Origin: an uncultured Bacilli bacterium
GTDB taxonomy: Bacteria > Bacillota_I > Bacilli_A > RF39 > UBA660
Length of the DNA: 64,000 nt
Direction: 5' to 3'
NCBI GenBank assembly: GCA_934149245.1
Contig: CAKPER010000002.1
Location: 4,879 to 68,878, forward strand
Shown: piece after piece, positions 2,234 to 36,777 of the stretch
Numbering within the stretch: position 1 is the first letter of the stretch
Layout of the letters: every line of letters starts with the position of its first letter
Position numbers and translations under genes: made by a program
Notes under the pieces: generated by a model
The model's database searches: none
Told to the model about the DNA's origin: nothing
The model's input: the letters and a program-made list of their open reading frames with translations, nothing else

Positions 2234-3439
2234 GTGGAAAATACTTTTTTTAGAAGAGCTATCATAGTATTTCTATTATCTTTTACAATTTTAGTCATAA
2301 CATCAGCTTTTTATCTATTTTTAAACACCAAAGATATACTATTAGTTAGTGATTTAACAGCTGATTTTAGAGATAAAGTATATTTAAAAGATTTTATTTA
2401 TAAATTAGATGGTACCCTAAAAAATAATTATAAAATTGATACTAATAAAGTTGGTACTCAAGAAATAAAAGCAATATATCAAGATAAACATGGCTTTTAT
2501 AAAACAAAAAGATTTACAATTGAAGTAAAAGATGTTGTTGCTCCTACTATTATGTTATCTGGTGATTATACTGTTACTAAAGGCTATGATGGCAAACTTG
2601 AAGATGATATTTTATGTGCTGATGATACAGATGACCAAGTAGAATGTAAGATAAGTGGTAGCTATAATTTAGATGAAGTGGGAATATATCCCTTAAAAAT
2701 AACAGCAAAAGATAAAAGTAACAATAAAACATCACTAAAATTTAATTTAAATGTCGTTGATAAACAAAATAATAACACTAATTCAGACCAAGAAGATGAT
2801 ATGTCAAAGGCTACTAAATATGAGGATGTATATAAAAAGTATAAAACCAATAATACATTAGTAGGAATAGATGTATCTAAATGGCAAAAAGATATAGATT
2901 TTAATAAACTAAAAGAGCAAAATGTTGAATTTATTTTTATCAAAATAGCTGGTCAAAGACAAATAAATGGAAAAATAGAACTTGATCCTAAATTTAAAAC
3001 AAATATTGAAGAAGCTAAAAAACATGGTATTGCTGTTGGCGTTTACTTTTATTCTTATGCTAGAAGTCAGGAAGAAGCTAGAAAACAAGCAAGATATATA
3101 GTAAAAAATATAAAAAATTATGATATAGAACTTCCAATAGTTTTTGACTGGGAAAATTGGCTAGAGTATAATAAATTTAAACTTAGCTTTAATAGTCTTA
3201 ATTTCATTGCCAAAGCATTTATGGATGAAGTTGAAAAAAACGGCTATGATAGTTTAATTTATTCTAGTGAATATTACTTAGAAAATATTTGGTTTAAAGA
3301 AGATTATAATAATATCTGGATTGCTAAATATGGCAATCTAGAACATAAACCTAGCTATAAAGTATGGCAATTATGTAGTGATGGTAAGATAGATGGTATA
3401 GATAAATATATAGATATAGATGTTATGTACTTAAAATAA
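2234..3439 (+). CDS. Membrane-anchored GH25 muramidase (lysozyme) with an Ig-like (DUF5011-type) middle domain
   Basis: GGGAGGGG RBS with GTG start and an N-terminal TM helix. Ig-like segment reads APTIMLSGDYTVTKG..GIYPLKITAKDKSNN. C-terminal GIDVSKWQKDIDFNKLK..VEFIFIKI..YFYSYA..DWE is typical of GH25. Confidence 0.75.
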   Translation: MENTFFRRAIIVFLLSFTILVITSAFYLFLNTKDILLVSDLTADFRDKVYLKDFIYKLDGTLKNNYKIDTNKVGTQEIKAIYQDKHGFYKTKRFTIEVKDVVAPTIMLSGDYTVTKGYDGKLEDDILCADDTDDQVECKISGSYNLDEVGIYPLKITAKDKSNNKTSLKFNLNVVDKQNNNTNSDQEDDMSKATKYEDVYKKYKTNNTLVGIDVSKWQKDIDFNKLKEQNVEFIFIKIAGQRQINGKIELDPKFKTNIEEAKKHGIAVGVYFYSYARSQEEARKQARYIVKNIKNYDIELPIVFDWENWLEYNKFKLSFNSLNFIAKAFMDEVEKNGYDSLIYSSEYYLENIWFKEDYNNIWIAKYGNLEHKPSYKVWQLCSDGKIDGIDKYIDIDVMYLK

Positions 3440-3464
3440 ATAAAAAAATAAGGTGGTGTTTAAA

Positions 3465-4463
3465 ATGTCATTTCTTGAAAAAATTATTCCAGCAAAGTTT
3501 AAAACAATAACTAAAAATACAACTTCTACTACTACTAATACTAGTGTAAATATAAAAAAAATAGAGTCTGATAACAAACCAGAGGTAAATATTGAAGAAA
3601 TAGACTTAGGATTAGAAAATAGTTTTATGTTTAATGTTGATGCAGCAAGTGATATTGTTCATTCTAGAAAAGATGGTTTAGATATAAATAGTAGTAAGTT
3701 TTTAAGTGATGAAGATAAAGAAAGTATAAAAAAATTAATTGCTAAGAAAAATCCTGATATGACCTCTAATGGTATTGACGAAGAATTAAATAAATTGATG
3801 CAAGCTTGTAGCGATTACTCTGTAAGTCATGGTTGTGGTGCTTATAGTATCCTAGCTTTACGAAATGCTAAGTCTAACGACAAAGAGACAAAAGAATCAT
3901 TTTTTGGACATACTCTTTTAAATAGCCTAGGTACAGAAAAGTGGTATGAAATAATGGATAGACAACTTAAAAAAAATGGTGGTGGCCCATTAACAACCGA
4001 CGATATGTCAAAAGTATTAGATTATTATGGTTATAGCTACGAAAATTTAGGTCACTATACATCTGAATCTTTTTCCAAAGATGATAAAAGTGGTAACTAT
4101 CAAAAAATACTAGAACACTTAAAACAAAATAAACCAGTTGTTTTAATGGTTGGAAGAAAAGATGAAGGACTTGATAGAGGGTATAGCAGAACTACTTTTT
4201 CATCTAATGAACAAGATACATCTAAAGAGTTGGGTAAAAAAGCAAACGTTGACGATACTTGGGCGAAAAGCTTTCATTACATATTATTAGCAGGAGCAGA
4301 TGATAATAATAAAGTTACAATAATAGATTCTAGAAGTTTTGATTATGAAAACTACAAAAATATCAGATATTCAAATTATTCTAAATTAATATCCTACATA
4401 GCTTCAAATACGGAATCTACAGATCGTTATTCTAAGTATGCTGGTTGTATACTTATTGATTAA
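3465..4463 (+). CDS. Hypothetical protein, possible papain-like (C39_2-type) cysteine peptidase
   Basis: AAGGTGG RBS lies 8 nt before ATG 3465 (the track ORF starts 12 nt earlier). Candidate nucleophile is in SHGCGAYSILAL and candidate His/Asp in FHYILLAGADDNNKVTIIDS. Assignment rests on motif resemblance only. Confidence 0.4.
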   Translation: MSFLEKIIPAKFKTITKNTTSTTTNTSVNIKKIESDNKPEVNIEEIDLGLENSFMFNVDAASDIVHSRKDGLDINSSKFLSDEDKESIKKLIAKKNPDMTSNGIDEELNKLMQACSDYSVSHGCGAYSILALRNAKSNDKETKESFFGHTLLNSLGTEKWYEIMDRQLKKNGGGPLTTDDMSKVLDYYGYSYENLGHYTSESFSKDDKSGNYQKILEHLKQNKPVVLMVGRKDEGLDRGYSRTTFSSNEQDTSKELGKKANVDDTWAKSFHYILLAGADDNNKVTIIDSRSFDYENYKNIRYSNYSKLISYIASNTESTDRYSKYAGCILID

Positions 4464-4480
4464 TATAAGATAATAAAATT

Positions 4481-4509
4481 AAAGAACTTGTTGATGAGTT
4501 CTTTTTCTC
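4481..4509 (+). terminator. Rho-independent terminator
   Basis: AAAGAACT / AGTTCTTT stem followed by a T-rich tail, just after the 4463 stop. Confidence 0.55.
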
Positions 4510-4555
4510 GACATTGTTTTGAATAATTAAATATATACTTATATTAGGTGATAAT

Positions 4556-5596
4556 GTGGGGAAGAAGAAAATGAACTTAGTTAAAACTAAGAAAAAATCA
4601 AAATACAAATTAAAATATATAATATGTTTAGTAATTATTTACTTGTCTTTTTCTTATACTTTTTATAATATGATAAAAGGAAGTAAAGCAGTATCTAATG
4701 AGGAATTTATAAATATTTTAGTATCTAGTGGTAATGCTAATATATTATCTAAATATAAAACAACTAATATTATAAATGGTACTATGAAATTTCTTCTTAA
4801 TATAGATTTTACTAATCCTAAAAGCATTTTAAATAATAGTATTTTAAAATATGGTAGCACTAAAAAGGAGAAAACGGAAGCTACGATATCTATCTCTTAT
4901 AATGATGATTACAGTGATATGGATGAGTTAAAGAAAGTTAGTGATTATATAAAGGATCCTAATCCTAAAGAAATAAAAAAACCTCTTGTTTATTTATATA
5001 ATACTCATCAATTAGAAAATTATAATAATGATAATTTAGAAATATATGGTATAACTCCTAATGTTCAAATGGCTAGCTATTTATTACGAGAAAAACTTGA
5101 TAGTATGGGGATTTCTACAATAGTTGAAGATGCTAATATGAGTAATATTTTAGCAAGTAATAATTGGAATTATGCTTATTCTTATCAAGCTAGTGCTAGC
5201 TTAATAACAGATAAAAAAAATAAATATCCAACTTTAAAATATTTTATTGATATTCATCGAGATAGCATTCCCAAATCTGCATCAACTGCTTCCTTAAATA
5301 ATAAAAACTATGCTAAAATACTATTCGTTGTTGGAAAAGACTATAACACTTGGCAAGATAATTATAATTTTTCAAATAAATTAAATGATTTACTTAATAC
5401 TTACTATTCAGGAATATCCAGAGGAATTATTACCAAATCAGGAACAGGTGTTAATGGCATATATAACCAAAACCTAAGTCCTAATTGCATTTTAATAGAA
5501 GTAGGAGGAAATGAAAATACTATTGAAGAAGTTTATAATACTATAGAAGTTTTAGCAGATATTTTAAATAAGTATATATCAGGAGCAGCTAAATGA
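4556..5596 (+). CDS. spoIIP: Stage II sporulation protein P (SpoIIP family amidase/peptidase)
   Basis: N-terminal TM helix, then LYNTHQLENY, FIDIHRDS and ILIEVGGNENT motifs characteristic of SpoIIP. Confidence 0.8.
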   Translation: MGKKKMNLVKTKKKSKYKLKYIICLVIIYLSFSYTFYNMIKGSKAVSNEEFINILVSSGNANILSKYKTTNIINGTMKFLLNIDFTNPKSILNNSILKYGSTKKEKTEATISISYNDDYSDMDELKKVSDYIKDPNPKEIKKPLVYLYNTHQLENYNNDNLEIYGITPNVQMASYLLREKLDSMGISTIVEDANMSNILASNNWNYAYSYQASASLITDKKNKYPTLKYFIDIHRDSIPKSASTASLNNKNYAKILFVVGKDYNTWQDNYNFSNKLNDLLNTYYSGISRGIITKSGTGVNGIYNQNLSPNCILIEVGGNENTIEEVYNTIEVLADILNKYISGAAK

Positions 5597-31699: not shown

Positions 31700-32346
31700 T
31701 TTTATAAAAAAGAAAAAACAGCCTTAATTTAGACTGTTTTTAGATGAATTAAATTCATTAGTATTAGAACTACTATTACTACTTGAATCGTTACATTTAG
31801 AACCACTCATATTAGAGTTCTTAGACTTTGAATTATTATTCTTGTTGCATAAATTCTTATTAGAATTTTTCTTTTTTCCCATTTTTCATCACCCACTAAT
31901 ATTATTAACTAAAAAAAATAGATATATTCATGCTTTTTTTACTTTTTTTTATCTTTAAAAATAGCAAACACTAAAATAATTATAAGTAAATATAATATAG
32001 ACTATACACTATAAGAATAATTTATAAAAATTAACTTAAGAGAACCAAAAATAATACGAACAATAGTAAAAATACAAAAAAATAAAAATGTCAAAAAGTT
32101 AAAAATAAAAAAATAATAATTATTAAAAATATGGATTTTTTTATAAAATGTTTAAATGATAAATAGAATAGAAAAATGTGAACAAACCTTATAAAATAAG
32201 GGAAAAATGTTAAAAATAGGTATTTGACATATTTTTTTGAAAAAAACAAAAAAATTAAAAATAGAAAAAACCTAGATATTAAAAGAGTTTATTTTTTAAA
32301 AAAACTTTCAGTTAATTGAATGTTCGTATTTTTTGTAAAAATCTAC

Positions 32347-32376
32347 TTGACAATTCTAAAAAATAGAGTTTATAAT
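32347..32376 (+). promoter_or_regulatory. SigA promoter of the nrdD operon
   Basis: TTGACA, 18-nt spacer, TATAAT, ending 33 nt before the nrdD ATG. Confidence 0.55.
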
Positions 32377-32409
32377 TAGGGTGTAATTCAAAGTAGAGGG
32401 AGTAGTTAG

Positions 32410-34716
32410 ATGAGTGTAATAAATGAAAAATTATTAGAAAATTTAAAAGTAGTTAAAAGAAATGGCAAAAAAGTTGATTTTGACACAGCTAAAGTTGCTA
32501 TTGCAATAAAGAAAGGCTTTGATGGTGCTAATAAAGCTGAAGATGAAGAAGAAAGATATACAACAAAAGATATTCAAAAAGTATATCAAAGTGTAATTAA
32601 AAGAATTTTAAAAGAATATAAAGAGGAAGAAAAAATAAAAATAGAAAATATTCAAGATATGATTGAAGAGACGCTACAAAAGCTTGGCTATGAAGATGTC
32701 TATAAGTCATTTTCTGAATATAGAGATAGAAGAGCTCAATCAAGAAAGTTATTTTCTGATGAGAAAAAAATGCATAAGTTTTTAAAATCTTTAGAGGGAT
32801 TAGGACTTAAAAATGCCAAAGAAGAAGATGCTAAAAGAGAAAATGCTAATATAGATGGAAATTCTGCTATGGGTACAATGCTACAATATGGTTCAACAGT
32901 AAGTAAAGAATTTGCTAAAGCATATTTAATGAAGCCAAAATTTGCCTCATTACATGATGAGGGAGATATTCACATTCACGATATGGATTTCTTTGTAATG
33001 GGAACAACCACTTGTATGCAAATTGATTTAAATAAGTTATTTAAAGGTGGATTTTCTACGGGTCATGGACATTTGAGAGAACCACAATCAATTAATTCAT
33101 ATGGAGCTCTAGCTGCCATAGCAATCCAATCAAATCAAAATGATCAGCACGGTGGTCAAAGTATTCCTGCATTTGATTTTTATATGGCACCAGGTGTTTT
33201 AAAAACTTTCAAAAAAGAATATAAACAAGCTTTATATGAGTTGCTTGAATTTACGGATTTTATAAGTTTTGTAAATATGGACAAGTTATCTAAAGAAGTA
33301 GATAAGTTGAATTCAATAGAAGTTGATTTAGGTATATTTAGTAATTTTTATAAAGAAAGTAAAGAAGTTAGAAGAATTTTTGAAAAAGCCTATGACATAG
33401 CTTTAGCAAAAACAGATAGAGCAACTTATCAAGCTATGGAAGCTTTTGTACATAATCTAAATACAATGCATTCAAGAGCAGGAGCTCAAGTACCATTTTC
33501 TTCTATAAATTTTGGTACTGATACTTCACCAGAAGGTAGAATGGTTATGAAAAATTATTTGTTATCAATTGATGCTGGACTTGGAAAAAATGAGACACCA
33601 ATTTTCCCTATTTCAATATTTAAAATAAAAGAAGGTGTTAATTTTAACCCAGGGGATCCAAACTATGATTTGTTTAAGCTATCATGTAAAGTATCAGCAA
33701 AAAGATTATTTCCAAATTTTTCTTTTCTAGATTCACCATTTAACAAGCAATATTATAAAGGCGATTATAATACAGAAGTGTGTTATATGGGTTGTAGAAC
33801 AAGAGTTATGGGAAATGTAGTTGATCCTAACAAGGCTGTAACACCTGGAAGAGGAAATTTATCATTTACTTCTATCAATTTACCAAGGTTAGGTATCAAT
33901 CATGGAATTGTAAAAAATGAAAAAACAGATTTAGATGGTTTCTTTAATGAATTAGGTGAGCTTATGGATACTGTTAAAGATCAATTACTTGAAAGATTTG
34001 AAGTTCAGTGCAATAAAAGATCATACAATTTTCCATTTTTGTTAGAACAAGGAGTTTGGATTGATTCAGAAAAACTAAAACCTACTGATAGATTAAGAAA
34101 GGTATTAAAGCATGGTACTTTAAGTATTGGATTTATAGGACTTGCTGAATGCTTAAAAGCACTAATTGGAAAACATCATGGTGAATCAGAAGAAGCTCAA
34201 AAACTAGGATTAAAAATTATTGGATTTATGAGAAAAAAATGTGATGAATACTCTGAAAAATATAATTTGAATTTTACTTGTCTAGCAACACCAGCCGAAG
34301 GGTTGTCAGGTAGATTTGTAAACATAGATAGAGCGATATATGGAAAAATAAAAGGAGTAACAGATAGAGATTATTATACTAATTCTTTCCATGTTCCAGT
34401 TTATTATAATATTTCTATTATAAACAAGATAAAGAAAGAGGCACCATATCATGCTCTAACAAATGCTGGCCATATAAGTTATATAGAATTAGATGGTGAT
34501 ACTACTAAAAACTTAGAAGCATTTGAAAAAATAGTTCGTTTAATGAAAGAAAATAACATGGGGTATGCTGCGATTAATCATCCAGTCGATAGAGATCCAG
34601 TATGTGGTTATGTTGGTATAATTGGAGATGTTTGTCCAGGATGTGGTAGGAAAGCATACGAGGGGGTCAGTGTTGATAAAGTAAATGACTTCAAGAAAAA
34701 CTCATGCTGTAATTAA
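32410..34716 (+). CDS. nrdD: Anaerobic ribonucleoside-triphosphate reductase, large polypeptide (ATP-cone, catalytic barrel, partial Zn ribbon). It lacks the glycyl-radical motif.
   Basis: N-terminal ATP cone (VVKRNGKKVDFD). Conserved class III segments include GDIHIHDMD, TCMQIDL, GGQS, NFGT and CRTR. Ends ..PVCGYVGIIGDVCPGCGRKAYEG..NSCCN then TAA TAA. Confidence 0.9.
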   Translation: MSVINEKLLENLKVVKRNGKKVDFDTAKVAIAIKKGFDGANKAEDEEERYTTKDIQKVYQSVIKRILKEYKEEEKIKIENIQDMIEETLQKLGYEDVYKSFSEYRDRRAQSRKLFSDEKKMHKFLKSLEGLGLKNAKEEDAKRENANIDGNSAMGTMLQYGSTVSKEFAKAYLMKPKFASLHDEGDIHIHDMDFFVMGTTTCMQIDLNKLFKGGFSTGHGHLREPQSINSYGALAAIAIQSNQNDQHGGQSIPAFDFYMAPGVLKTFKKEYKQALYELLEFTDFISFVNMDKLSKEVDKLNSIEVDLGIFSNFYKESKEVRRIFEKAYDIALAKTDRATYQAMEAFVHNLNTMHSRAGAQVPFSSINFGTDTSPEGRMVMKNYLLSIDAGLGKNETPIFPISIFKIKEGVNFNPGDPNYDLFKLSCKVSAKRLFPNFSFLDSPFNKQYYKGDYNTEVCYMGCRTRVMGNVVDPNKAVTPGRGNLSFTSINLPRLGINHGIVKNEKTDLDGFFNELGELMDTVKDQLLERFEVQCNKRSYNFPFLLEQGVWIDSEKLKPTDRLRKVLKHGTLSIGFIGLAECLKALIGKHHGESEEAQKLGLKIIGFMRKKCDEYSEKYNLNFTCLATPAEGLSGRFVNIDRAIYGKIKGVTDRDYYTNSFHVPVYYNISIINKIKKEAPYHALTNAGHISYIELDGDTTKNLEAFEKIVRLMKENNMGYAAINHPVDRDPVCGYVGIIGDVCPGCGRKAYEGVSVDKVNDFKKNSCCN

Positions 34717-34739
34717 TAAAAGGAAAGAGGTAAATTAAG

Positions 34740-34913
34740 ATGAAAAAAGATGAAATTAAAGAAGTAAAGACAGTAGGAGAGGGAATTGGTTTTGAGAGAA
34801 TAAGAAGAATTACAGGATACTTAGTAGGAACTGTCGAAAAATTTAACAATGGAAAAAAAGCAGAAGAGCATGATAGAGTAAAACATGGAACAGCAGGAAT
34901 TATAGATAAATAA
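34740..34913 (+). CDS. Stand-alone NrdD glycyl-radical domain (57 aa)
   Basis: GGAAAGAGG RBS lies 9 nt upstream. FERIRRITGYLVGTVEKFNNGKKAEEHDRVKH matches the NrdD C-terminal consensus RR(V/I)xGYL..(10)..FNxGKxxExxxRxKH. Confidence 0.75.
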   Translation: MKKDEIKEVKTVGEGIGFERIRRITGYLVGTVEKFNNGKKAEEHDRVKHGTAGIIDK

Positions 34914-34915
34914 AA

Positions 34916-35476
34916 ATGAAAATAAGATTAGCAACTACAAAGCTGTCAAAAGATAGTATTGTAGATGGAGAAGGAATACGTACTGTAATTTGGACCCAGG
35001 GTTGTCCTCATAATTGTGCAGGTTGTCATAATCCAGAAACTCATGATTTTAATGCTGGTTATTTAATTGATATAGAAAAAGTTAAGAAAAATATAGAAAT
35101 ATTAGAAGGACAAGATGGAGTTACCTTTTCAGGTGGTGATCCTATGCTCCAACCATTGCCTTGTAGCGAAATTGCAAAATTTTGTCATCTACTTGGTTTA
35201 AGTGTGTGGTGTTATACAGGATATACCTATGAAAAATTATTGGAAATGTCCGAAAATAATCCTGACATTATGAGCTTTTTAAAGCAAATTGATGTATTAG
35301 TAGATGGAAAATTTATAAAGGAAGAAAAGAGTTTTGATTTGAAATTTAAGGGTTCAAAAAATCAAAGAATAATAGATGTTCCAATAAGTCTTTTAAAAAA
35401 AGAAGTAGTATTAAAATATGATTTAGATAAAAAGACTACCAATAAAGGTAGAAAAAATAAATATATGTTTGTTTAA
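34916..35476 (+). CDS. nrdG: Anaerobic RNR activating enzyme (radical SAM)
   Basis: GCPHNCAGCHN contains the CxxxCxxC cluster. GVTFSGGDP is the SAM-binding motif. Confidence 0.85.
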   Translation: MKIRLATTKLSKDSIVDGEGIRTVIWTQGCPHNCAGCHNPETHDFNAGYLIDIEKVKKNIEILEGQDGVTFSGGDPMLQPLPCSEIAKFCHLLGLSVWCYTGYTYEKLLEMSENNPDIMSFLKQIDVLVDGKFIKEEKSFDLKFKGSKNQRIIDVPISLLKKEVVLKYDLDKKTTNKGRKNKYMFV

Positions 35477-35628
35477 AATAAAAAATTGTAGACTAGAAAT
35501 TAGTATAGTTTACAATTTTTTTGATTTCTAAAATTTATTTATAATCTACATATTAAAATAATAAATATAATCAAGAAAATAAAATATTATATTAAAAAAA
35601 CTCACATATCAATATGAGTTTCTCGTCT

Positions 35629-36777
35629 TTAATTAGTAAATCTTAAGCTTTCATTTGAAATATTAAATATCATTCCAACTAGTAACATGTATGATAATAA
35701 AGAAGAACCACCATAACTAATAAAGGGAAGTGTAATACCCATTATAGGTAGAACTCCGATTGTCATTGAAATATTTTGAATCTGTTGAAATAATAATACA
35801 GCAATAATTCCACCAATAGTATACTTATCTGTAATATCTGTAGTTTTTGATACCATATGTATAAGTGTTATATCAAAAAACATAATAAGTAATATAAGTA
35901 ATGAAGCACCAATTAAACCAAAATTAGAAGCAAATACACTAAAAATAAAATCGGTTTGCATTTCAGGAAAATATATAGGAGTTTTTCCATGACCTAAAAT
36001 TCCAGCAGAACCAATAGCCGTAAGAGAATTAGTTAACTGCATACCACTACTACTAGACCAATTAACAATTCTATCAATACGATAAAGCAAACTAGTTCCG
36101 AAGATATCAATAAATAAATCACTATTAATAAAATATAATATTCCACAGCAACTAATAATAGAACCTAATATTACTAAAACAAATAAAAACCAACGTTTTC
36201 TAATTCCACCAACGAATAACATTACAAAGGTAATAATAAAGTAAATCATTACTGCTCCAGTATCTGGTTCAATAAATGTTAAAACTGATGGAATAGCAAC
36301 TATAGCAAATACTTTTAATAAAAATTTAAATTCGTCACTAACAGATGGATTTGAGTATTGGTCATTGAAATCTCTAATTAACCTAGATAAGATAATAATC
36401 AAAAAAACTTTCATAAATTCACTAGGTTGTATACTACCAATATATTTTATTTGAAACCAGCATTTAGCACTGTTAACTTCCTTACCAATAAATAGAACCA
36501 GCAATAAGGAAATAACTCCCACTATATAAAACCACCAGGCATTATTGTATAAAAATTTATTTCCTAAAAACATCATAAAATAGGCAAGTCCAAAACCAAT
36601 AACATACCAAACAATTTGCTTCATCCAGTAATTTTGAAAATCTACTCCCATAAGACTTCTTGTGCAATATATAGAGACTACGGATACTATACTAAATAGT
36701 ATAAGAGGAATTAATACAGAATTTTCAACCTTAAACTTGGATACATTTTTAATAATATCACCACTTTCTATATGCAT
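35629..36777 (-). CDS. Intact SEDS family peptidoglycan polymerase (RodA/FtsW-type)
   Basis: 382 aa, 10-TM pattern. QPSEFMK, EPDTG, PEMQTDFIFS, and C-terminal GITLPFISYGGSSLLS. Confidence 0.8.
   Translation of the reverse strand: MHIESGDIIKNVSKFKVENSVLIPLILFSIVSVVSIYCTRSLMGVDFQNYWMKQIVWYVIGFGLAYFMMFLGNKFLYNNAWWFYIVGVISLLLVLFIGKEVNSAKCWFQIKYIGSIQPSEFMKVFLIIILSRLIRDFNDQYSNPSVSDEFKFLLKVFAIVAIPSVLTFIEPDTGAVMIYFIITFVMLFVGGIRKRWFLFVLVILGSIISCCGILYFINSDLFIDIFGTSLLYRIDRIVNWSSSSGMQLTNSLTAIGSAGILGHGKTPIYFPEMQTDFIFSVFASNFGLIGASLLILLIMFFDITLIHMVSKTTDITDKYTIGGIIAVLLFQQIQNISMTIGVLPIMGITLPFISYGGSSLLSYMLLVGMIFNISNESLRFTN

Follow-up and report, generated by a model that had tools for sequence, protein, structure and literature searches.

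A ribonucleotide reductase (RNR) divided between two genes appears to be encoded in a 64,000-nucleotide (nt) stretch of DNA from an uncultured Bacilli bacterium of the RF39 lineage (contig CAKPER010000002.1, positions 4,879 to 68,878; the whole stretch is called the window below). A 768-amino-acid (aa) NrdD chain carries the ATP-cone, the catalytic barrel and a zinc ribbon, while the loop on which a class III enzyme stores its stable glycyl radical is encoded separately, as a 57-aa open reading frame (ORF) lying between nrdD and the activase gene nrdG. The preferred explanation, to which a probability of about 0.8 can be given, is that the two products form a functional two-polypeptide class III (anaerobic, formate-type) RNR, with the radical carried by an obligate small subunit acting in trans. 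The argument is built on comparisons of sequences: catalytic residues conserved in a large chain that ends before the loop, an invariant loop core in the small one, and recurrence of the same layout in many lineages of gut anaerobes.

Organization of the locus

The features described here are on the + strand unless stated otherwise. The large nrdD ORF (32410..34716) encodes an ATP-cone (aa 13-109), an alpha/beta barrel, a zinc ribbon and a short tail without the radical glycine; its C-terminus reads ...DRDPVCGYVGIIGDVCPGCGRKAYEGVSVDKVNDFKKNSCCN (also given as ...INHPVDRDPVCGYVGIIGDVCPGCGRKAYEGVSVDKVNDFKKNSCCN), followed by TAA TAA. After a 23-nt spacer (34717..34739, AAGGAAAGAGG) comes the small ORF (34740..34913, in frame +2 relative to nrdD), whose ATG is preceded at a distance of 9 nt by a Shine-Dalgarno GAGG (34727-34730). 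The 186-aa radical-SAM activase NrdG is encoded at 34916..35476, only 2 nt past the small-ORF stop, so translational coupling of nrdG to the small ORF is likely. A first-pass annotation, made from the letters of the DNA, had described just this arrangement: a 768-aa ORF stopping shortly after the zinc ribbon with no radical motif, a 57-aa ORF in another frame behind its own ribosome-binding site and bearing the radical glycine, and nrdG immediately beyond (34913 to 34916). The coordinates and profile searches agree with it on all three points.

Stop codons in and around the spacer (TAA at 34714, 34717, 34731, the last in the frame of the small ORF, and 34736) close all three frames, so that no single insertion or deletion could fuse the large and small ORFs. 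A sigma-70-type promoter (TTGACA-18-TATAAT, 32347..32376), the sole 12/12 consensus match within 31700-35700, would serve all three genes; no terminator-like + strand site was found between nrdD, the small ORF and nrdG, and the three are best read as a single operon. The activase assignment is supported by TIGR02491 (147.8 bits, cut-off 126.1) and by Pfam Fer4_12 and Radical_SAM matches, and an adjacent nrdG is what would be expected of a class III system.

The large chain: a complete catalytic subunit without its loop

The large ORF aligns to positions 3-715 of 746 in NCBIfam NF005497 (1017.5 bits, cut-off 764) and to positions 1-531 of 562 in Pfam NRDD (PF13597; 634.6 bits), with an additional match to the ATP-cone; against TIGR02487 it scores 575.5 bits (cut-off 326). 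Both alignments with stated positions stop short of the C-terminal end of the profile; the RxxGY radical loop is absent from this polypeptide and present on the small ORF, and Pfam and NCBIfam profile searches found no other glycine-loop motif in the large chain. The closest solved structure is the Prevotella copri NrdD (8P23 chain A; E = 4e-176, identity ~40-44%), in which residues 9-705 align to residues 14-748 of the window protein. An AlphaFold2 (AF2) model of the large chain has a mean predicted local distance difference test score (pLDDT) of 73.5, with low confidence at the zinc ribbon and tail (725-768) and at the flap; its top Foldseek matches are the NrdD proteins of P. copri, S. thermophilus, T4 and T. 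maritima (E 4e-45 to 1e-12), and the chain is thus predicted to have the ten-stranded barrel fold of RNRs and glycyl-radical enzymes.

The catalytic residues are all intact. C202, C462, the flap asparagines N145/N147, H188/H190/D191 (HxHD), N483 and E630 are invariant in 41 split and fused relatives; C462, in the finger loop YMGCRTRV, corresponds to Cys416 of P. copri NrdD, and C202 to Cys171. The MGC motif, together with Asn at the third-cysteine position, marks a formate-type enzyme, an assignment that leans on the P. copri study (PMC11226230) and on the E. coli NrdD residues M382/C384.

The zinc ribbon (aa 724-747, HPVDRDPVCGYVGIIGDVCPGCGR, 34579..34650), which is half of the glycyl-radical domain, aligns to P. 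copri NHNRNRCLDCGY...CPKCG, and its residues H724, D729, C732, C742 and C745 are invariant in the same 41 relatives. It reads DPVC...CPGC: the first Cys of the CxxC...CxxC pattern is replaced by an invariant Asp, giving a DxxC first knuckle (aa 729-732, 34594-34605) where P. copri has CLDC. The first-pass annotation had pointed to this single-Cys knuckle, and it is indeed present (DPVCGY, not CxxCGY), but it characterizes the whole subfamily, fused relatives included, and has no connection with the split. Metal binding may involve an Asp/Cys3 site, or may use H724.

The small chain: the radical loop, helix and tail

The 57-aa product opens with a charged, variable leader (1-12); a GEGIGF linker then leads to the radical loop FERIRRITG26Y27LVGT, which is followed by a helix/tail segment EKFNNGKKAEEHDRVKH and a short tail. 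It matches NF005497 at positions 710-744 of 746 (E = 1.1e-11) and NRDD at 533-562 of 562 (32.3 bits, cut-off 26.2). NRDD is its only Pfam match at E <= 1; Gly_radical (PF01228) is not matched, and the protein falls outside the Gly_radical / GrcA family (IPR011140, PF01228) typical of pyruvate formate-lyase (PFL). In PHROGs, too, its matches are confined to the C-terminal end of NrdD families. Residues 18-49 align to 707-738 of P. copri 8P23_A, with Gly26 (codon 34815-34817) at the position of Gly711, Tyr27 at that of Tyr712 and Lys34 at that of Arg719; in P. copri, Gly711, Tyr712 and Arg719 contact the flap and the substrate (PMC11226230).

The P. copri glycyl-radical domain (676-739) comprises a structural zinc site, the buried Gly711 loop, and a short helix with an extended tail (PMC11226230), so the cut seen here falls inside the domain; three independent profile/structure-sequence alignments place it cleanly between the zinc site and the radical loop. 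The earlier description of the glycyl-radical domain as a separate ORF is accordingly right for the loop, short helix and tail, and has to be amended for the zinc-ribbon half, which stays on the large ORF.

The core RRITGYLVGT..RFNNGK.AEE.DRVKH is invariant and is the same as in fused, catalytically competent relatives; 30 columns are invariant among 19 small-ORF homologues (74-86% identity). When nonsynonymous and synonymous differences (pN/pS) are computed on the 32-codon core over 70 split loci, the mean synonymous difference is ~0.88 per site, near saturation, and the nonsynonymous difference 0.12 per site, which points to strong purifying selection. The AF2 model of the small chain (pLDDT 56) gives no confident autonomous fold. 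Public databases name the protein by homology only (“anaerobic ribonucleoside-triphosphate reductase”) or leave it unnamed.

Distribution of the split layout

The exact 57-aa sequence occurs on 423 public contigs and in 789 assembly-collection blocks, always as nrdD(768)-57-nrdG(186); together with the stops in the spacer, this sustains the early judgment that the split is not a sequencing error. A relative at 82% identity has the same layout in a different genomic neighborhood. The best 120 small-ORF homologues are all 56-83 aa long, and a search of 1.84 billion 50%-identity representatives gave 1985 matches at E <= 1e-3 (492 at E <= 1e-10), the best 150 of which are all 45-175 aa. For the large ORF, the lengths of the 120 nearest homologues (692-771 aa) show that all of them lack the radical loop.

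When each GTDB species is represented by a single genome, relatives of the small ORF are encoded in at least 595 genomes; the locus counts that follow refer to the best 80 loci. The small ORF is directly downstream of a large nrdD in 70, fused in 7 and an orphan in 4, a total of 81 because one locus (L067) has two matches and is counted both as fused and as an extra downstream copy. Subtracting that copy and one odd locus (L075) from the 70 leaves ~68 true split operons, most of them continuing into nrdG, so the nrdD / mini-ORF / nrdG order for which the first-pass annotation proposed to look in related genomes is found in the large majority of the best 80. The hosts include many Bacilli metagenome-assembled genomes (MAGs), the clade of the window, as well as Oscillospiraceae, Lachnospiraceae, Mogibacterium/Anaerovoracaceae, Peptococcaceae, Fibrobacter (including F. 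succinogenes) and Desulfovibrio.

Among these relatives the gap between the large-ORF stop and the small-ORF start ranges from -17 to 175 nt, with relative frames of 0, 1 and 2, and small ORFs in short spacers mostly have their own GGAGG-type site. Such variation in spacer length and frame excludes both sequencing error and a conserved recoding signal; fusion by recoding or frameshifting, considered as a separate candidate, was ruled out on these grounds. NrdR boxes precede 17 of 61 split operons, those of L048 and L067 being perfect.

Some individual loci depart from the common layout. In a Lachnospiraceae locus (L065), the 171-nt spacer holds an NrdR-box-like palindrome (ACACAATATATTGTGG) and a TTGACA-type promoter, so that nrdD may have a transcript separate from that of the small gene and nrdG there; the L066 spacer also contains a promoter-like site. 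The odd locus, from a Saccharibacteria MAG (L075:4001-4261), has an 87-aa stop-to-stop ORF that combines zinc ribbon and radical loop, i.e., a whole glycyl-radical domain, behind an unrelated 376-aa ORF, and no barrel-encoding nrdD is matched anywhere in the 5.7 kb of the locus; this could be a remnant, or a stand-alone domain of another kind. In a Mollicutes MAG with a fused nrdD-nrdG (L080), a divergent second nrdD paralogue lies directly downstream (L080:4954-7047); its 697-aa product has CC in the finger loop and ends in RVVGFYRP.

Origin of the split

The tail of the large chain (aa 748-768, KAYEGVSVDKVNDFKKNSCCN, 34651..34713), which has a CC near its end, looks like a vestige of the first part of the glycyl loop, no longer able to carry a radical. 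Fused relatives follow the pattern ...CPxCGRxExDGxxFERIRRITGYLVGT..., split large chains read ...CPxCGRxxGEGVS(V/I)EK(L/I)... and are divergent beyond, and small ORFs begin M...(V/I)GEGVGFERIRRITGY. In a MAFFT alignment the DGPGFERIRRI of fused relatives falls under EGVSVDKVNDF of the window, and an hhalign comparison of the tail profile with the small-ORF profile gives P = 3.4e-4. Shuffle tests against the loop consensus reach p <= 0.05 for 80% of 66 tails, although the tails are interrelated and the tests not independent. Five long tails (L019, L032, L048, L066, L070) align with the loop from end to end, including EE.DR, with the radical glycine replaced; BLASTP of one long tail against its own small ORF gave no alignment. 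In the AF2 model the tail has a pLDDT below 50. Taken together, these comparisons identify the tail as a probable degenerate paralogue of the radical loop, suggesting that the split began when the 3' end of nrdD was duplicated in tandem.

A presumed intermediate is seen in a Bacillota MAG (L067:1512-4690), where a full-length 779-aa NrdD is followed by a 94-aa ORF, nrdG and nrdR. The 94-aa ORF (3881-4165) joins an unrelated N-terminal half to an intact second loop, and between its loop and that of NrdD 8 of 96 nt are different, each of these changes being synonymous; here a class III RNR is truly laid out as “enzyme plus spare part”. In a neighbor-joining tree of 71 large chains, which carries no support values, fused forms are interspersed among split ones, an interleaving that is counted in favor of the duplication. 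A single origin of the split finds no support in that tree; the branching could reflect repeated splits or, starting from a “fused plus spare” state, differential loss on repeated occasions.

The cysteines at the end of the window's large chain had also been picked out in the first-pass annotation. They are present, but such endings are facultative: 29 of 62 large tails, and 3 small ones, end in CC or CxC, and the idea that a Cys pair is required on one or the other failed at 31 of 62 loci, which have neither. Cys-rich ends are also found in some fused relatives (ECNCD, NCNCKD) and in a few small ORFs (CSCTK, CDCSL, SCGCK), the window's being NSCCN. The tails of clostridial large chains share the motif EKLxELRKKYPxMPxFxGxE.

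Orphan small genes in bacteria and phages

Relatives of the small ORF also occur alone. The four bacterial orphans (L045, L049, L051, L071), in genomes of Anaerobiospirillum, Desulfovibrio, Ca. Crickella and Succinivibrio, have no nrdD or nrdG within 4 kb. The L051 gene (4001-4123) lies between genes for a Crp/Fnr-type regulator (3275-3955) and a rubrerythrin (4150-4737), neighbors that suggest an oxidative-stress context.

In IMG/VR, 558 stretches encode a relative, and the best 80 of these (L089-L168) were classified. Orphan small ORFs make up 67 of them, with no nrdD or nrdG within 4 kb and with products of ~47-75 aa; there are 2 split operons and 4 fused genes, and in the remaining 7 the small ORF is at a contig edge (5) or a nearby large gene is non-adjacent or incomplete (2). 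Phage context was verified for a sample of five. In L104 the small ORF (3992-4156) is clustered with genes for a DNA methyltransferase, an endolysin and the large terminase subunit; L099 (4001-4153) and L110 (3998-4147) have genes for 3'-phosphoadenosine-5'-phosphosulfate (PAPS) reductase, L110 and L105 exonuclease genes, and L128 (3989-4210) an endolysin gene. The RRITGY radical-loop motif is kept in all of these phage copies. PHROGs has no family for the phage mini-genes, which match only the C-terminal end of its NrdD families, and among GenBank phage records the gene is present on eleven unannotated human-faecal contigs.

Alternative explanations

One possibility is that the small protein is a facultative spare of the GrcA/YfiD type that serves only to rescue damaged enzyme, that a complete NrdD or another RNR class is encoded elsewhere, and that the loop-less large ORF is secondary or inactive. 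The full-length-plus-spare layout does exist, in L067; there are the orphan small genes, one of them adjoining rubrerythrin and Crp/Fnr-type genes; and some relatives, such as L080, have two nrdD paralogues. What makes this improbable is that the large ORF, lacking a radical glycine, keeps every catalytic residue under selection, which implies that a loop is needed from elsewhere, that the small gene is inside the operon between nrdD and nrdG in ~68 of 80 genomes, and that 120 of the 120 nearest large-chain homologues are loop-less.

Another is that the small protein is a regulator, decoy or chaperone (a substrate that titrates NrdG, or a plug for the barrel) rather than a radical carrier. The loop-derived tail of the large chain could fill the same site, and the small chain has no confident fold of its own. 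This nonetheless seems very unlikely, given that the glycine, the tyrosine next to it and the rest of the core are invariant, just as in fused competent relatives, and that the large chain has no other loop to offer. That the split might be unreal at the protein level (a sequencing or assembly error, a recent pseudogene, or recoding to a fused NrdD) is barely credible despite the adjacency of the ORFs and their collinearity with the fused gene, in view of the closed spacer frames, the identical arrangement in independent assemblies from many samples, the varying spacers and frames with mostly separate Shine-Dalgarno sequences and ATG codons, the promoter-like site and NrdR box within the L065 spacer, and purifying selection on both parts.

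A possible mechanism, and what weighs against it

If the two chains do form one enzyme with a trans-acting radical subunit, the 768-aa chain would contribute the ATP-cone, the barrel, the thiyl-radical C462, the second catalytic C202 and the zinc ribbon, and the 57-aa chain the stable-radical loop (Gly26, then Tyr27) and a short helix and tail crossing the top of the barrel. NrdG with S-adenosylmethionine would remove a hydrogen from Gly26 while the peptide is free or has swung out of the barrel; the position of the small gene between nrdD and nrdG suggests such activation in trans. The loop would then dock in the barrel beside C462, and the radical would be shuttled at each turnover as in single-chain NrdD. 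Being separate, cheap, and translated between nrdD and nrdG, the radical element could be exchangeable, so that after cleavage by oxygen at the radical glycine the 57-aa piece alone would be replaced; cheap recovery from oxygen damage might conceivably be the advantage of the split. As to origin, the 3' end of nrdD would have been duplicated in tandem, the downstream copy becoming an independent gene and the upstream copy losing its glycine and decaying to a tail. The first-pass annotation had likewise proposed that the radical segment acts in trans, like GrcA but obligatorily, and comparative evidence speaks strongly for this.

Exchangeability can be taken further. The ~55-aa peptide might be a “radical cartridge” that NrdG charges away from the enzyme and that is then loaded into NrdD barrels lacking a loop, obligate in bacteria (where extra or orphan copies are few) and carried alone by gut phages to recharge or take over the host's anaerobic supply of deoxynucleoside triphosphates (dNTPs). 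This extended version is tentative, with odds somewhat short of even. In P. copri NrdD with dATP the whole glycyl-radical domain is disordered and the radical still forms (PMC11226230). That mobility helps to make exchange plausible, as do the small chain's lack of a confident fold and the action of GrcA/YfiD in trans on cleaved PFL. The PFL activase, for its part, accepts short peptides that mimic the glycine loop. The viral orphans, 67 of the best 80, are counted as further support; phages could perhaps supply the radical peptide to the host enzyme.

Several points weigh against the two-polypeptide explanation. The large chain still has a conserved tail of the same loop ancestry, which would have to share one site with the small subunit. 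Without a covalent link, the 35-residue loop would need to bind in the barrel tightly enough for the radical to stay buried, which is plausible. The making of the 57-aa protein, its activation by NrdG and its binding to the large chain are predictions from sequence; a second complete NrdD or another RNR class could be encoded elsewhere in the genome, the analysis covering the 64-kb window; and the benefit of repair after oxygen damage is conjecture.

Relation to known systems

Glycyl-radical enzymes are taught as single chains, with the radical loop buried in the enzyme's own barrel. The system described here shares with single-chain NrdD/NrdG (P. copri 8P23; E. coli, phage T4, S. thermophilus) the ATP-cone, barrel, MGC finger-loop Cys, second Cys, NxN flap, HxHD, zinc ribbon, RxxGY radical loop, C-terminal helix and adjacent nrdG. 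It differs in that a gene of their own encodes the radical loop and C-terminus and the large chain ends in what appears to be a degenerate loop remnant, and also in the DxxC first knuckle, though this is common to fused members of the subfamily.

To our knowledge, the only autonomous glycyl-radical proteins are GrcA/YfiD and phage T4 Y06I, both serving PFL. These spare parts are likewise small stand-alone proteins with a glycyl-radical loop, with a phage-borne version in both cases, and by analogy the window's protein would also be activated by the cognate radical-SAM activase and dock into a barrel without a usable loop. In contrast, GrcA/YfiD belongs to a different homology group and is 127 aa long (vs. 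~57 aa here); the partner in the present case is genetically loop-less, which would make the small protein obligatory rather than a means of repair, and the gene is inside the enzyme's operon. Coexistence with a full-length parent, which is characteristic of GrcA, is not seen in the window and among the relatives is found only in L067.

Other RNRs have divided chains of other kinds. The class II NrdJa/NrdJb of Pseudomonas aeruginosa and other gamma-proteobacteria and the class I alpha-a/alpha-b of phage Aeh1 also distribute the catalytic chain over two adjacent genes, with a C-terminal module on the second, but what they split off is a redox tail/zinc-finger module or barrel halves, not a radical-storing element; surveys covering these splits mention no split class III enzyme. 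Class I NrdB/NrdA resembles the present system in concept, since radical store and catalytic barrel are on different polypeptides; however, it uses a metallo-cofactor and tyrosyl radical with long-range transfer, as against a glycyl radical directly beside the catalytic Cys, and the proteins are unrelated. In eukaryotes NrdD and NrdG are fused. A 2021 paper speculates on spare parts for other glycyl-radical enzymes, and a 2026 review knows spare-part proteins for formate-lyases only; a full-text literature search, with subscription-only papers outside it, turned up no account of a split NrdD, nor of an autonomous radical protein of the NrdD type, bacterial or phage-borne.

What can be said of its importance depends on how far the interpretation is carried. 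Across many lineages of gut anaerobes the radical loop appears to have been cut off a class III RNR, with both halves under selection. If the peptide is in fact a loadable cartridge, this would be the first case of a glycyl-radical enzyme whose radical element acts obligately in trans, and spare-part or auxiliary systems would for the first time extend beyond the formate-lyases. Several questions would then have a ready-made system: How does an activase gain access to a buried glycine, and is the loop activated inside or outside the barrel? How is a radical peptide handed over and kept safe, and how is oxygen-damaged enzyme renewed? For annotation, the large ORFs pass as complete NrdD although they are loop-less, and the phage copies point to an unrecognized auxiliary gene for dNTP supply in the gut.

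The region upstream of nrdD

Neither an NrdR box upstream of the window's nrdD nor an Rfam element or riboswitch in its leader was found when these were looked for. The upstream region itself (31700-32409) is ~700 nt of non-coding, very AT-rich sequence, unusually long, with no Rfam match and no NrdR box. On the opposite strand, this stretch includes a 52-aa Ser/Asn/Lys-rich ORF (31724-31882, -), accompanied by a terminator-like hairpin at 31741-31714.

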